Source: a virus (taxonomy: Duplodnaviria; Heunggongvirae; Uroviricota; Caudoviricetes). Taken from it: a stretch of DNA of 10,865 bases. The position numbers and the translations under genes are program-made. This document shows positions 2,305 through 5,964 of the stretch, one piece after another. The stretch lies in the IMG/VR virus record IMGVR_UViG_2660238548_000023, one strand, 5' to 3'. Position 1 is the first letter of the stretch; each line of letters starts with the position of its first letter. The notes under the pieces were generated by a model. The model did not search any database and was not told the origin of the DNA. It worked only from the letters and a program-made list of their open reading frames with translations.

Positions 2305-2502
2305 ATGTCAAATAACTTACTTCGTCTTTCTGATGTTATGCGCCGTACTGGTTACGGTCGCGCTTGGATTTATCGCCTGATCAGCCTGGGGCGCTTCCCT
2401 AAACCTGTAAAAATTGGTTCCCGCTCCGTGGCTTTTATTGAAAGTGAAGTCGACGAATGGATTAACCAGCGTATTGATGCTTCTCGCAACAACGCCGCGT
2501 AA
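2305..2502 (+). CDS. alpA: AlpA-family transcriptional regulator / excisionase-like protein
   Basis: Small ORF with the AlpA-like pattern LLRLSDVMRRTGYGRAWIYRLISLGRFPKPVKIGSRSVAFIESEVDEWI. ATG at 2305 has RBS gagga at 2294-2298; the ORF track starts at TTG 2299. Confidence 0.85.
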   Translation: MSNNLLRLSDVMRRTGYGRAWIYRLISLGRFPKPVKIGSRSVAFIESEVDEWINQRIDASRNNAA

Positions 2503-2568
2503 TAATCTTTTGGGAGGGGGGGGTATTCTCCCCCAGCACTAAACCTGATCCGACAGCAGGAGTTTTCA

Positions 2569-3288
2569 ATGAAACGTCCGAATATGCCCGTACAGGGGCA
2601 GGGCTTCATTCAGCCTGAAATCAGCCAGAACGATATATTGATTCGCCACAAAGCAGAGTCGCGTATTGATTCCCGCGTTATTTCTGAGCGAGCAGGAATA
2701 CAACACGAAAGTATCATTGCGACGATTAAATCTCATCAATCCAGATTGCGCGAGCTTGGCTCACTGCCTCGCCAGTCAGTCAAGGAATTAACCTATTTGA
2801 AATCGGGAAAATCTGGCCGCAAGCGCGGTCGTCCTGAAATTAGTTATTTGCTGAATGAGCTACAGCTTGACTATCTGTTACGCGTTATCCGTGGGCGTGA
2901 CGCAGAACGTATCAACCAGTTCAAGCTGGATGTTACGAAGGCATTCGCGAAGCATCGCGCCGCTGAACCAGTCCGTCGCGAATATCTGCCAGGCTATCAC
3001 GAAAGCCGTGACGGGCTTAAAGCACTGGGCGCAGAACGTCACCATTACATCAACCTTGCCCGCACTGAAAATCGCTTCGCTGGGCTGGCTGTAGGCGAGC
3101 GTCAGAGCGCGGGAGAGCAACAGTTAGGCTTACTGATAGTCATGCAGAAAATCGAGCAGGCAGCATTTAACGAGGCGATACAGAACGGCATGACACCGAC
3201 CGAAGCGGTGCGGGAAGTTGCTCGCCGCATGGAGACGTTCGCCAGCCTGATGACGTCAGCGCCGTCTCTGGGGGTGAATCATGCGTAA
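2569..3288 (+). CDS. Rha-family phage regulatory protein (putative)
   Basis: 239-aa ORF; RBS aggag at 2558-2562, 6 nt before ATG 2569. The N-terminal region (ILIRHKAESRIDSRVISERAGIQHESIIATIKSH) resembles the Rha domain. Its stop overlaps the next start (ATG 3281, TAA 3286-3288). Confidence 0.6.
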   Translation: MKRPNMPVQGQGFIQPEISQNDILIRHKAESRIDSRVISERAGIQHESIIATIKSHQSRLRELGSLPRQSVKELTYLKSGKSGRKRGRPEISYLLNELQLDYLLRVIRGRDAERINQFKLDVTKAFAKHRAAEPVRREYLPGYHESRDGLKALGAERHHYINLARTENRFAGLAVGERQSAGEQQLGLLIVMQKIEQAAFNEAIQNGMTPTEAVREVARRMETFASLMTSAPSLGVNHA

Positions 3289-4804
3289 TTATGATTTCGC
3301 CGCAATTATTCCGGTATCACCTGGCATTATTGGCAGATATGAAACGGGCGTTGTCAGCGCACGCGCACTGCATAAAGCGCTCGGTGTAGGCCGTGATTTC
3401 ACCACCTGGATTAAAGGGCGTATTGAGGAATACGGATTTAAAAAAGGTGTGGATTTTGAGGCTGTAGAAAATTTGTACTTTGATTCCCAGAAACGGGGGA
3501 GCCAAAGTGTAAATATTGAACAGTTTGATTCTGGCTGGCACGTCGCCTGGGAGAACGTGAACATGCCTGACATCCGCAACGCTGCCGCCCTGTACATCGA
3601 TACTGCGGATAAGTTCGCACAGGTGAGCATCAACCATGCTGATTACATGCGCCATATCGTGAGCCATTTCGCCGCTGAGCGCATGAAACACGTTAAGCAT
3701 TATCAGAAGGAGGCTTTATCAAATTATCGCGCTGGTGGCCCTGTACGGCGTGAATATCCGCATGATGCAGGAATGGCAGGCAAAACAAAGGCGACCACGA
3801 AAGGGTCGCCAGTGGAGATAAAGGAAATCAAGCGCATCACCAACTATGCCATGAGTGTAGCTGGTGGACAAGGCTATCAGCCAGGCGGTCGGTTTTTAGT
3901 GGCTTTTAACCGCCGTGGGTATTTCTCGACAAAAGCCTCAAGGGCAAATCGTGTTGGCCTGGTGAGTGGCAGTGGATTAAGTAACAACCTCCTTTGCCGT
4001 TGTGCTTTTTCGCGCTGTCGCTCAAGTATGGATAATGCGATTTCCTGTAGTTCTTCATTTGTCATTGTCTGTACCCGTAAAGCGGTGCGCTGTAGTACCT
4101 CATATCACAGCGCAGGTATTTTTTATGGTTGTAATTTGCGTGATGATTCAGGTTGCTTTGCGACACACTGCATAAACATAAATAACGTGATGTTATTATG
4201 TGCTTTCAAAGAAAACGCAGGTATTTTTCGCACAAACTTTTCTCGCAACACATCCGACCACTTAAGCAAAAAAGCGGCATATACTGAAGCTATCCCTTAT
4301 AAAACGGGGATCGGGCGTAGGAACCCGTTTAACTGTAAGGCGATAAATGACGCCAGAAGCGTCTTTTTTTCTGCCAGCGCTTTACGCCATATCAATGGCG
4401 TTGTGTATTGTGCGTACTCGTGCACCATCCAGTCATTTCACGAGTTGCATTTTGCACAGCGCCACCAGCAAACAATGGTGATGCTGGCGGGGCTACCGAA
4501 AGGTAGGCCGGAGTCCTTACAGTCCGGTATTCCTACCCCCGCCAGTGTCACCGCCCATTGTGAGCGTAGGAACTCCTGCGGTGACGTTATTCATCACTGT
4601 AAGGAGGCTGCCAACATGGCTACTACCCCTACCCTCGTACATTCTCAGACTGCCTTTATCTGGCGCTTTATCATCTTTGGCGCGTCAGAATCCCAAATCA
4701 TCCACGTAACCGCCTGGACGGAACGCGAAGCGCGTAACCGTTGCCCGTCAGGTTGCGTTGCTGTATTCGCCGCCCGTATCCGTCAGGAGGCATCACATGG
4801 ATAA
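3281..4804 (+). CDS. AntA-domain antirepressor-like protein; 3' extent uncertain
   Basis: N-terminus (VVSARALHKALGVGRDFTTWIKGRIEEYGFKKGVDF) matches the AntA antirepressor N-domain pattern. The frame has no stop until 4804, but after about codon 230 (near 3960) the translation is Cys/Ser-rich and non-protein-like, and it runs through a hairpin plus T7 terminator (4349-4370), the structured leader and the in-frame Icd-like ORF. The true C-terminus is probably well upstream of 4804. Confidence 0.4.
   Translation: MRNYDFAAIIPVSPGIIGRYETGVVSARALHKALGVGRDFTTWIKGRIEEYGFKKGVDFEAVENLYFDSQKRGSQSVNIEQFDSGWHVAWENVNMPDIRNAAALYIDTADKFAQVSINHADYMRHIVSHFAAERMKHVKHYQKEALSNYRAGGPVRREYPHDAGMAGKTKATTKGSPVEIKEIKRITNYAMSVAGGQGYQPGGRFLVAFNRRGYFSTKASRANRVGLVSGSGLSNNLLCRCAFSRCRSSMDNAISCSSSFVIVCTRKAVRCSTSYHSAGIFYGCNLRDDSGCFATHCININNVMLLCAFKENAGIFRTNFSRNTSDHLSKKAAYTEAIPYKTGIGRRNPFNCKAINDARSVFFSASALRHINGVVYCAYSCTIQSFHELHFAQRHQQTMVMLAGLPKGRPESLQSGIPTPASVTAHCERRNSCGDVIHHCKEAANMATTPTLVHSQTAFIWRFIIFGASESQIIHVTAWTEREARNRCPSGCVAVFAARIRQEASHG
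4349..4370 (+). terminator. intrinsic terminator-like hairpin plus T7
   Basis: gacgc (4349-4353), loop cagaa, gcgtc (4359-4363), then ttttttt (4364-4370). It lies about 10 nt after the upstream copy of actgtaagg (4332-4340). Confidence 0.4.
4501..4592 (+). ncRNA. candidate c4/CI-type antisense immunity RNA (structured leader upstream of icd-like ORF)
   Basis: Hairpin 1: ggtagg (4502-4507) pairs with cctacc (4532-4537), inner stem ccgg/ccgg (4508-4511 / 4524-4527), 12-nt loop agtccttacagt. Loop bases 4514-4523 (tccttacagt) are exactly complementary to 4596-4605 (actgtaagga), which overlaps the SD of the Icd-like ORF; 9 of them also match 4332-4340. Hairpin 2: gtcaccgc (4547-4554) pairs with gcggtgac (4578-4585). 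Confidence 0.35.
4616..4804 (+). CDS. host cell division inhibitor Icd-like small protein (putative)
   Basis: 62-aa ORF (MATTPTLVHSQTAFIWRFIIFGASESQIIHVTAWTEREARNRCPSGCVAVFAARIRQEASHG). Strong SD aaggagg at 4601-4607, 8 nt before ATG 4616. Position directly after a c4-like structured leader matches the P1 c4-icd arrangement. It is in frame with the upstream long ORF. Confidence 0.4.
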   Translation: MATTPTLVHSQTAFIWRFIIFGASESQIIHVTAWTEREARNRCPSGCVAVFAARIRQEASHG

Positions 4805-5225
4805 AAACATGTTGATCGCCTCTTCTTTCGGGCTGTATGATGCCGAAGTCGCCCACATGGCGACCGGGTTTAGCAGCCTGAATCAGATAGCGGACAGCCG
4901 CTTACATTCCGATATGCGGTTTTTTTGTGTCCGTAAGCCTACCCATACCCGCATTATGGCGGGGCGTAACGGGGGAGCCTTTGCGCTCGCTGGTTCCTAT
5001 CTGGCCAGTCTGCTAACCCCGTTACGTCTCGCCACCATGTTTAGCAGCGTAGTAGCGAGACTCCTTAATCAACAGATAGGAGCCTTTCACATGGCTGTAT
5101 CCGCACGCACATCTGATTTTTGTCGCCCGTATCCGTCAGGAGGTGACTCATGCTTAAAACCTTCCGCGTCTTTTCCCGTGCTGTTAACAAGCGCGGCCAT
5201 ACCATCGGCATCACACAGAACGTGA
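4797..5225 (+). CDS. hypothetical ORF overlapping the second structured-leader copy
   Basis: ATG 4797 lies 6 nt after the first 20-bp RBS module cgcccgtatccgtcaggagg (4771-4790) and overlaps the icd-like stop (TAA 4802-4804). The translation is Ala/Ser/Leu-rich and low-complexity, and its 3' half covers a second divergent copy of the leader, so it may not encode a real protein. Confidence 0.3.
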   Translation: MDKNMLIASSFGLYDAEVAHMATGFSSLNQIADSRLHSDMRFFCVRKPTHTRIMAGRNGGAFALAGSYLASLLTPLRLATMFSSVVARLLNQQIGAFHMAVSARTSDFCRPYPSGGDSCLKPSASFPVLLTSAAIPSASHRT

Positions 5226-5335
5226 AGGCCGAAAACGTCCAGGCTGCAATCAGCACAGTAATTAACAAATCAGCTAAAGCCGGTTTATCCGGCGTAATTA
5301 TCCACGCAGTTACATGTATTCAGGATGAGGAGTAA
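5150..5335 (+). CDS. hypothetical small basic protein
   Basis: 61-aa ORF. ATG 5150 lies 6 nt after the second exact copy of the 20-bp RBS module (5124-5143). The sequence (MLKTFRVFSRAVNKRGHTIGITQNVKAENVQAAISTVINKSAKAGLSGVIIHAVTCIQDEE) is protein-like. Confidence 0.45.
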   Translation: MLKTFRVFSRAVNKRGHTIGITQNVKAENVQAAISTVINKSAKAGLSGVIIHAVTCIQDEE

Positions 5336-5338
5336 TTC

Positions 5339-5548
5339 ATGTGTGATTTTTCCGATATGACTGTTGATGAAGCAGCAAAAAGCGCAATGCAGGCAGAACT
5401 TATTTGTTCTCTGATGATGGGTAACACAGGTGGAATGACTGAGGGTGAGATTGAGTCATTGCTCGCCCTGATTAAGCAGCTTACAGGTAAGGCAGGTAGC
5501 TGGCTGATTGCTGCATCGGGTGATGATGCAATATGCGTCAATGACTGA
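5339..5548 (+). CDS. hypothetical small acidic protein
   Basis: 69-aa ORF. RBS gaggag at 5327-5332 before ATG 5339; begins 3 nt after the previous stop. Confidence 0.5.
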   Translation: MCDFSDMTVDEAAKSAMQAELICSLMMGNTGGMTEGEIESLLALIKQLTGKAGSWLIAASGDDAICVND

Positions 5549-5592
5549 ATCCTTTGTTGTTCTGAATATCATGAAATTAAGGGGGTGCAGTA

Positions 5593-5784
5593 ATGCAGCA
5601 AATAACACTGGCAGAAGCCTCACTGCAAGCGCAACAGGTCGAAGTAATCAGCCGCATGATTGAACGCAACCACGAAGAAATAGACGACCATGACCTTTCT
5701 GTTATTGCAGGACTTATCAAACAACTTTCCAGCAATGTGGCGGTGTGGTTAATGACGGAGGAAGAAAAACGCGGCGAACAATAA
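5593..5784 (+). CDS. hypothetical small acidic protein (possible paralog of 5339-5548)
   Basis: 63-aa ORF. RBS aagggggtg upstream of ATG 5593. Shares an LIKQL...WL segment with the preceding small protein. Confidence 0.5.
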   Translation: MQQITLAEASLQAQQVEVISRMIERNHEEIDDHDLSVIAGLIKQLSSNVAVWLMTEEEKRGEQ

Positions 5785-5841
5785 CGGCTAAAAATAAACG
5801 GGAAATAAGGATTAAGACGACTCCTTCAGGAGATTAATTCA

Positions 5842-5964
5842 ATGGCATCAAAAAATACTGGCTTAACTGCCAGTAGCAAAACTCACCCCGAATTTATGTG
5901 CGGGGATATTTACCGCAATGAATACGGTAGCCACATGACGATGATCAGCAGAGGTAAGAAATGA
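5842..5964 (+). CDS. putative 40-aa micro-ORF translationally coupled to the primase
   Basis: Manually found ATG 5842 with RBS caggag at 5826-5831; the TGA stop (5962-5964) overlaps the primase ATG (5961) as ATGA. Below the ORF-track length cutoff. Confidence 0.25.
   Translation: MASKNTGLTASSKTHPEFMCGDIYRNEYGSHMTMISRGKK

Follow-up and report, generated by a model that had tools for sequence, protein, structure and literature searches.

Antisense immunity of the IsrK(seqA)-C4(CI) type has been established for P4, P1, P7, N15 and lambdoid prophages (PMC3632133, PMC4825925). In P4, eta ends with the kil gene, and termination is prevented when eta is translated from a promoter further upstream (PMC10111431). 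In P1, RNase P processes the transcript of the operon itself to yield the c4 RNA (PMC5320573, which summarises work by Citron & Schuster and by Hartmann et al.). Here we analyze a stretch of 10,865 nucleotides (nt) that represents an island integrated in the chromosome of E. coli (IMG/VR record IMGVR_UViG_2660238548_000023, 'the window' hereafter). Positions 4257-4804 very probably make up the immunity module of an integrated satellite related to P4 and the phage-inducible chromosomal islands (PICIs), which is homologous to the PLE-seqA-CI-seqC-kil region of P4. All features lie on the plus strand unless indicated otherwise, and the facts on P4 were taken from its sequence and from the summaries in PMC10111431, PMC4825925 and PMC3632133.

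The central element of the module is a gene for a C4/CI-type antisense RNA (4471-4558). The search with the Rfam C4 family (RF01695) that was proposed in an earlier, sequence-only reading of this DNA returned a full-length match (model positions 1-87 of 87) of 70.3 bits, compared to a gathering score of 45, and a covariance model of our own, built on 49 C4 sequences, gave 84.7 bits. The minimum free energy (MFE) of the RNA is -49.3 kcal/mol (z = -6.0) and its predicted fold has two hairpins within a closing stem of 16-17 bp (4477-4552), which is the fold of the C4 family. The closing helix resembles an acceptor stem and the 3' tail is NCC(A)-like. Compensatory changes back the fold: over the 49 sequences 98% of the cells were paired and 13 pairs showed double changes (0 of 500 shuffles), as compared to 34-51% paired cells in slid controls. 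The loop stem (helix 3) was fixed by the pattern with which the loci were searched and was thus uninformative in this comparison. The hairpin structure that is conserved in the family has a 5-bp stem (4507-4511/4524-4528) and a 12-nt loop (4512-4523). The hairpin proposed earlier (4502-4537) located the loop correctly but was drawn too wide, as it borrows bases from the neighbouring hairpin and the junction and does not correspond to the conserved structure.

The loop, b' (AGUCCUUACAGU, 4512-4523), is the specificity element. As claimed in the sequence-only reading, it contains tccttacagt (4514-4523), the exact reverse complement of actgtaagga at 4596-4605, and a second copy of the target, actgtaagg, is found at 4332-4340, ahead of a terminator. 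The downstream target b2 (ACTGTAAGGA at 4596-4605, with the full element covering 4596-4607) overlaps the Shine-Dalgarno (SD) sequence GGAGG (4603-4607), 8 nt before the ATG at 4616, and is the equivalent of P4 seqC. The upstream target b1 (ACTGTAAGG, 4332-4340) pairs with loop positions 4515-4523; it is the equivalent of P4 seqA and aligns to TTCACAGG in that sequence. When both strands of the window were searched for ACTGTAAGG, exactly three occurrences of the 9-mer were recovered (4332, 4596 and, as the reverse complement, 4515-4523 in the loop), whereas 0.03 are expected and none of 200 shuffles reached three. We also found a second contact, which the earlier reading had missed. The junction element a' (UUCCUAC, 4530-4536), single-stranded in the C4 fold, has an exact 7-mer complement GTAGGAA both in the leader (a1, 4317-4323) and downstream of C4 (a2, 4566-4572). 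The RNA thus possesses two recognition elements, and for both a' and b' complementary sites exist on either side of C4, as in the immI region of P1 and P7. Apart from these contacts, a cis hairpin is predicted at 4573-4606 (5' arm CUCCUGCGGUGA) that holds b2 and the SD sequence in its 3' arm; its stability does not differ significantly from that of shuffles (z = -1.3). Hairpins resembling it are visible by eye in P4 and in other loci.

The a1 and b1 targets are located in a leader (4292-4370) homologous to isrK and to the seqA RNA of P4, which is recognized by the Rfam isrK model (RF01394) at 50.0 bits over 4292-4369. The leader ends in an intrinsic terminator (4349-4370), composed of a GC stem (4349-4363) and a run of seven T residues (4364-4370), that was detected by a terminator scan and is present in P4 as well. 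Upstream of the leader, positional homology predicts a PLE-like promoter (4257-4285), with a -35 element ACCACT (4257-4262), a 17-nt spacer and a -10 element TATACT (4280-4285). In 186 distinct members of the family the best sigma-70 match was found at the same offsets from a1.

The correspondence to P4 extends over the complete module. A megablast search with positions 3800-5800 of the window yielded no match in the phage collection, but a more distant DNA search of the window against phages recovered P4, D6, RCS47 and Stx phages, and the match in P4 falls on an old open reading frame (ORF) annotated as 'ash / cI gene product (AA 1-137)'. According to Rfam, P4 carries C4 at 8507-8420 and isrK at 8692-8615 (60.8 bits). 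Window positions 4240-4640 align collinearly to this region, and the leader (4292-4369) aligns to P4 8692-8615. In P4 the PLE promoter comes first, then a leader in which seqA (UUCACAGG) precedes a hairpin and seven T residues, the CI RNA with loop UCCUGUGAA, seqC (UUCACAGGAGG) on the SD sequence of kil, and kil itself. The three pairing sites differ between the two elements in a compensatory way (ACTGTAAGG / CCTTACAGT in the window and TTCACAGG / CCTGTGAA in P4), and the junction contact of P4 (UUCUCAC / GUGAGAA) is present at the same places.

To specify the conservation of the contacts, C4 loci were collected from viral contigs (120) and from species-representative genomes (120), using a search pattern in which only the conserved C4 positions were fixed and the loop was left free. 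The sequence-only reading had mentioned a lack of conserved complementarity in homologous elements as evidence that would speak against it. On the contrary, loop and targets co-vary over 54 distinct loops: the mean exact complement was 7.46 nt upstream and 7.72 nt downstream for a locus' own loop, and 5.13 and 4.87 nt, respectively, for the loops of other loci. When G:U pairs were allowed, within a fixed window of +35 to +80 nt after the core, the own loop reached 9.24 and other loops 5.80 (0 of 10000 permutations). The contrast was weak when G:U pairs were allowed over a 310-nt upstream window (8.43 versus 7.15; 0 of 10000 permutations), with the own loop best or tied in 9 of the 54 loci, so that the exact-match and fixed-offset comparisons are the informative ones. 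The downstream site of the family has a fixed offset and lies on an SD sequence that is followed by an ATG. Complementarity of the loop to both an upstream site and a downstream site overlapping the SD sequence, as known for P4, is conserved in the family. The junction behaves similarly. Among 24 distinct junction variants an exact 7-mer complement was present upstream in all 24, and downstream, at +19 to +24, in 21 (0 of 10000 permutations). Homologues of the primase were encountered near C4 in 53 of the 120 viral loci.

The first ORF of the module (4616-4804, 62 amino acids) is Icd/Kil-like, in line with the earlier description: it matches NF033153 (phage_ICD_like) at 59.8 bits, with a cut-off of 25 bits, and Kil of P4 scores 76.1 with this model. 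Like kil in P4, it forms the end of a longer, eta-like read-through ORF (3281-4804, 507 amino acids), which runs through the RNA gene and the start of which overlaps the stop of Rha. This long ORF comprises an N-terminal AntA fragment (Pfam AntA at residues 25-68), a middle part, an Ash part (Phage_ASH at residues 334-455, corresponding to nt 4280-4645 and thus to the leader, C4 and the SD sequence) and Icd. Translation of the region as part of a genuine long protein was named in the sequence-only reading as an argument against an RNA function. Such an ORF is indeed present, but it does not refute the RNA interpretation, because the nested organization is the conserved eta/kil arrangement of P4. 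Moreover, the frame upstream of the Icd/Kil start codon was open over at least 90 codons in 41 of 68 distinct loci, compared to 0 and 10 for the other two frames. The middle part (nt 3491-4279) looks unlike a protein in its composition, yet is free of stop codons. Its counterpart in relatives has been annotated by the NCBI annotation pipeline (PGAP) as an intact coding sequence in some (381 and 550 amino acids) and as pseudogene fragments in others. Within the limits of this long ORF, the minus strand contains a 62-residue ORF (3877-4065) with a good terminator-like hairpin behind it (3810-3790, minus strand); it was considered as a divergent gene but had no match in Pfam or PHROG.

A second complete module (4812-5225), about 480 nt downstream, had escaped the sequence-only reading. 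It starts with a predicted promoter at the position conserved in the family (4812-4841; TTGATC, an 18-nt spacer and TATGAT; 9 of 12 matches), which was the sole promoter-like site that a generic scan found in 3200-5400. The promoter is followed by an isrK-like leader (4848-4926; 35.4 bits, below the gathering score of 50) that contains a1 (TTAGCAG, 4870-4876) and b1 (CAGATAG, 4884-4890) and ends in seven T residues (4920-4926). The second C4/CI-type RNA gene (4952-5039) scores 72.9 bits over model positions 1-87 of 87 and has an MFE of -48.1 kcal/mol (z = -6.1), with loop b' UUCCUAUCUGG at 4994-5004 and junction a' CUGCUAA at 5010-5016. Its downstream targets are a2 (TTAGCAG, 5041-5047) and b2 (CAGATAGGA, 5073-5081), the latter overlapping the SD sequence AGGAG, 8 nt before the ATG at 5091. 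All eight target sites of the two modules keep exact complementarity. The Icd-like ORF of the second module (5091-5225), nested in an ORF that spans the second C4 (4797-5225), is disrupted by a deletion. The intact copy in locus L001 (strain STEC2018-553) matches NF033153 at 51.2 bits and the copy in the window does not match, and the deletion is flanked by an 8-bp direct repeat (CCGCACGC).

Predicted duplex energies separate the two specificities. The loop of the first C4 reaches -14.6 kcal/mol with its own downstream region and -7.2 with that of module 2, and the loop of the second C4 -14.9 kcal/mol with its own b2 region and -7.8 with that of module 1; on these predictions, the modules are orthogonal and do not cross-react. 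They are not recent duplicates. A global alignment of the two with MAFFT was of no use for their comparison, since the spacers differ and the modules became misaligned. A 41-nt direct repeat with 80% identity and an exact core of 20 nt (CGCCCGTATCCGTCAGGAGG) flanks module 2, one copy lying at the end of each Icd ORF. The first copy of this module-boundary joint (4766-4806) comprises the Icd C-terminus, an SD sequence and the ATG of the next ORF; the second copy is located at 5119-5159.

By analogy with P4 and P1, the module would operate as follows. Transcription would start around 4292 from a weak constitutive promoter (-10 at 4280-4285), and a fraction of the transcripts would end at the terminator to give a short isrK-like RNA. 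Transcripts that read through would be cut by RNase P at the 5' end and give rise to stable C4 of about 80 nt (in the P4-type system, RNase P and PNPase yield a species of about 70-80 nt), and this RNA would pair with the a and b sites on nascent transcripts and thereby block the translation of Icd. The untranslated, C-rich start of the ORF would then be exposed to Rho, and termination would take place ahead of the primase operon. Base composition makes the start of ORF 4616-4804 a candidate Rho-loading site: its first 80 nt are C-rich and G-poor (C/G of 2.08 versus 0.86 in the window), and in the family C/G exceeds 1.5 in 81% of the ORF starts, versus 14% of the next 120 nt. Upon induction, the transcript of the alpA-rha operon would be translated continuously through ORF 3281-4804 and in this way escape both pairing and termination. 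The long ORF is start/stop-coupled to Rha as well as to ORF 4797-5225, and its frame may be kept open for the transit of ribosomes rather than for a product. Module 2, with its orthogonal specificity, would repeat the lock in series.

A number of observations weigh against this interpretation. The promoter of module 1 has 7 of 12 matches, a poor -35 element and a place at the weak end of the family, and was missed by the generic scan. The isrK score of its leader lies exactly at the gathering score of 50, and the MFE fold of this leader departs from the two-hairpin consensus of Rfam; the leader is nevertheless collinear with that of P4. The b1 target of module 2 measures 7 nt only, and the second icd carries a frameshifting deletion of 104 nt at ~5101/5102 relative to L001. 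In the long ORF, AntA is represented by a fragment, and the middle (residues ~70-333) has no Pfam or PHROG family match. Together, the frameshifted icd, the AntA fragment and the ORF middle without a family suggest that parts of the region may be decaying. Finally, every step beyond base complementarity is one that we infer by homology with P4 and P1. One could even argue that the RNA-like sequences and repeats are what an inactivated satellite has left behind and that they no longer regulate anything, as the damaged second icd, the truncated AntA, the weak -35 element and the fact that PGAP calls the 'ash' coding sequence a pseudogene in relatives would suggest. We hold such a relic to be very unlikely, considering that both C4 copies score over their full length and have intact folds, that none of the eight targets has lost its exact complementarity, that the 507-codon frame is still open and that integrase, AlpA, primase and SSB are each encoded by an intact gene. 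The damage to the second icd, with C4 and its targets untouched, may reflect loss of a toxic Kil/Icd while the RNA was kept, which is consistent with continued use of the RNA. It is extremely improbable that the region mainly encodes a protein of the 'Ash family' or a 'transcriptional repressor' and that the complementarity is incidental. PGAP does annotate a coding sequence here, and residues 327-506 of the long ORF are matched by Pfam Phage_ASH together with several PHROG families named 'transcriptional repressor' (phrog_6928, phrog_1743 and phrog_6196). These families match only the stretch over the leader, C4 and Icd. They map exactly onto the RNA locus plus Icd, and they are a legacy of the old annotation of P4, in which an ash/cI protein was assumed. 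The immunity factor of P4 is the CI RNA (PMC4825925, PMC10111431). Compensatory stem changes and the co-variation of loop and target are signals at the RNA level, beyond coding constraint, and in P4 translation of the frame and function of the RNA coexist.

The remaining alternatives accept the RNA and differ in what it does. If the locus worked like that of P1, C4 would block only the translation of icd and, by coupling, that of a downstream antirepressor, and the system would serve to counteract a helper or host repressor instead of controlling replication of the element through transcription termination. P1 shares the two-contact a'/b' design (PMC5320573), and AntA and Rha, domains of the 'Bro network', are present in the operon. 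The window also contains matches to the c4-a1b1 family (RF03163) at 4279-4331 and 4835-4884, but with 22-30 bits these stay far under the gathering score of 46.7. Furthermore, the AntA and Rha parts are located upstream of the RNA; downstream of icd we found the ORF with module 2, three small ORFs and a P4-alpha-like primase, not the icd-ant order. The locus is also collinear with P4 down to the terminator of the leader and the nesting of kil in eta, features that the surveyed P1-like loci are without. An output of the P1 type is thus quite unlikely, and the c4/CI architecture, which the sequence-only reading had compared to both P1 and P4, is P4-type rather than P1-type, given the primase operon downstream and the missing ant. 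A role as described for IsrK of Gifsy-1, in which the leader RNA (4292-4370) is the main regulator in trans, either by opening an inhibitory mRNA structure and so activating translation of the downstream ORF or as a decoy that titrates C4, and C4 itself is secondary, is unlikely as well. The leader belongs to the isrK family, IsrK works this way in Salmonella (PMC4825925), P4-like prophages of S. Typhi depend on an IsrK-like element (PMC3632133), and b2 with the SD sequence falls in the 3' arm of the cis hairpin at 4573-4606. That hairpin is indistinguishable from shuffles, as noted above, and the leader bears copies of the a and b sites in the same sense as the downstream targets, which permits pairing with C4 and precludes it with those targets. 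In addition, P4 is the closer homologue and has CI as its immunity factor (PMC4825925, PMC10111431). A decoy role of the leader is compatible with the P4-type model and may well coexist with it. The module is therefore of an already known kind: it is P4-type and, since no ant gene follows, not a P1 immI, and the occurrence of C4/isrK in such islands has been published.

The tandem organization is not restricted to the window. A scan with our own covariance model recovered four modules in locus L088, three in L066 and L211, and two in L116, L110, L151 and L224. The viral contig L088 (IMGVR_UViG_3300012997-type) carries its four tandem modules on the minus strand (~2350-5330) with a spacing of about 850 nt. 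Each has a promoter, a leader, C4, targets and an ORF of around 177 amino acids that resembles the Icd N-terminus and Rha, and the four loops are all different. The flanks of these units are about 100% identical and the cassette between them 40-60%, a sequence pattern that indicates cassette exchange or homogenisation of the flanks rather than drift. Loop specificities were diagonal, each module matching its own targets, in L088, L123 and L151. In L110 both modules have the same loop and can be told apart by their junctions only, and in L116 the downstream targets of the first module have been lost. In L066 (1322-1745) and L211 (4205-4626) three C4-like copies are found, two of which abut (89 nt from start to start), score lower and precede a complete module; these could be degenerate copies or decoys.

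Comparison with relatives reveals an exchange of modules. Islands with a backbone that is 98.8-99.2% identical carry a single module of still other specificities, and in these single-module relatives Icd is joined straight to the 61-residue ORF. In strain STEC1585, the same second module is preceded by a different first one, whereas module 1 of STEC2018-553 is 100% identical to that of the window. Within 5426 complete E. coli genomes, the sequence type of module 1 was present in 19 and that of module 2 in 140. Two apparent cases of a third module were dismissed: the extra ~470 nt in O145/O43 relatives correspond to a different upstream Bro gene (GIY-YIG), with L244 having two C4 copies, and H13, with an 'Icd-like x3' annotation, has two modules only. 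It is conceivable, at what we would put slightly below an even chance, that complete IsrK-C4-Icd modules are stacked as orthogonal cassettes (two here and up to four in L088) and swapped between near-identical islands at conserved joints, with the array possibly acting as a multiple lock and conferring immunity in trans. No description of tandem orthogonal arrays or of cassette exchange was found in the searchable literature, which is a weak negative as several queries returned noise.

The island itself encodes a tyrosine integrase, AlpA, Rha, the AntA fragment, Ash, Icd-like proteins, a D5/P4-alpha-like primase, SSB, a ProQ/FinO-family protein and PerC-like regulators. The genes follow the zone order of Gram-negative PICIs (PMC10111431), in which an integration zone (int, AlpA) is followed by a Bro zone (Rha/AntA/Ash) and a replication zone (primase, SSB). 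Of the set that characterizes P4-like satellites, int, AlpA and the alpha-like primase are present in the window, and sid, psu, delta and eps, which serve in capsid sizing and in manipulating the helper, were found neither in its 10.9 kb nor in the 14 kb of L001. The primase-helicase (5961-7784; Pfam D5_N, Pox_D5 and DUF5906) is presumed to be under the control of the immunity modules. Relatives adjoin tRNA-Gly or yicC. The islands L245 and L246 (Okinawa bovine strains), which are 98.8-99.2% identical to L001, adjoin tRNA-Gly, and L001 (STEC2018-553) adjoins yicC; the integrase of STEC2018-553 is annotated under a different protein accession. The ProQ/FinO-family, RNA-chaperone-like protein (8742-9209), encoded a few kb away from the antisense RNAs, was recognized by the NCBIfam ProQ and FinO models (E ~3e-15, below the curated cut-offs). 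A functional link between this protein and C4 was considered and discarded as a general association, because tblastn recovered no homologue near any of 240 other C4 loci. Two small ORFs (9169-9471 and 10394-10696) show weak ANR/PerC-like similarity, and the PerC family appears in the annotation of relatives. PerC-type regulators have been linked to virulence-gene control in pathogenic E. coli.

The module in itself bears out a textbook mechanism in a class of islands that is widespread in E. coli, and it has consequences for annotation: RefSeq lists only 'Ash family' and 'Icd-like' coding sequences at such loci and no noncoding RNA, and Phage_ASH and several PHROG 'transcriptional repressor' families largely represent translations of an RNA locus. 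The 54 loop and 24 junction variants with their matched targets constitute a natural catalogue of orthogonal two-contact RNA-RNA pairs, which could be used to predict hetero-immune satellites and phages or as a source of building blocks for synthetic regulators. Judging from the tandem, cassette-like arrays, satellites seem to diversify their immunity specificities and to accumulate them, which bears on the competition between satellites and on the tightness of the replication lock. If functional, an array would be a multiple lock on the satellite's replication operon and would give the resident trans-immunity against several immunity types of competing satellites and phages, like a combinatorial RNA 'immunity barcode'.

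Compared to the described systems, the module is alike to that of P4 in the order of its parts, in the leader target that is followed by a hairpin and seven T residues, in the loop that faces an upstream site and a downstream SD site, and in a first Icd/Kil-like ORF of 62-65 amino acids that ends a longer ORF through the RNA gene, with a primase downstream. It differs in specificity (ACUGUAAGG / GUAGGAA here and UUCACAGG / GUGAGAA in P4), in its weaker -35 element, in the length of the read-through ORF (507 amino acids and fused to an AntA fragment, versus about 200 in P4, where the 65-residue kil ends an open frame of 214 codons) and in being followed by a second, orthogonal module. With c4-icd-ant of P1 and P7 it shares the Rfam family, the a'/b' elements with their a1/b1 and a2/b2 targets and the occlusion of the icd ribosome-binding site by pairing at b2. 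However, the output of P1 is the antirepressor Ant, coupled to icd, whereas replication genes follow in the window, and the P1-like loci surveyed (L005, L024 and L053) are without a read-through ORF. Gifsy-1 IsrK/STnc1160 of Salmonella has an isrK-family leader with short terminated and read-through forms and a processed stable RNA downstream (PMC4825925), but there IsrK activates the translation of orf45/anrP in trans, a role that is not evident in the window. The 'Bro zone' of PICIs and HE-PICIs has the same zone architecture, with CI and seqA homologues inside Bro-network genes (PMC10111431); as far as its accessible parts go, that work reports the matches without dissecting targets and specificity and does not mention tandem modules of differing specificity. 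The Group 1 C4-like small RNAs of A. baumannii, finally, also comprise many C4-family RNAs in one genome with differing specificity loops (PMC5320573). Those copies are dispersed and their targets unknown, whereas the copies in the window form adjacent, complete modules with their own targets in cis.

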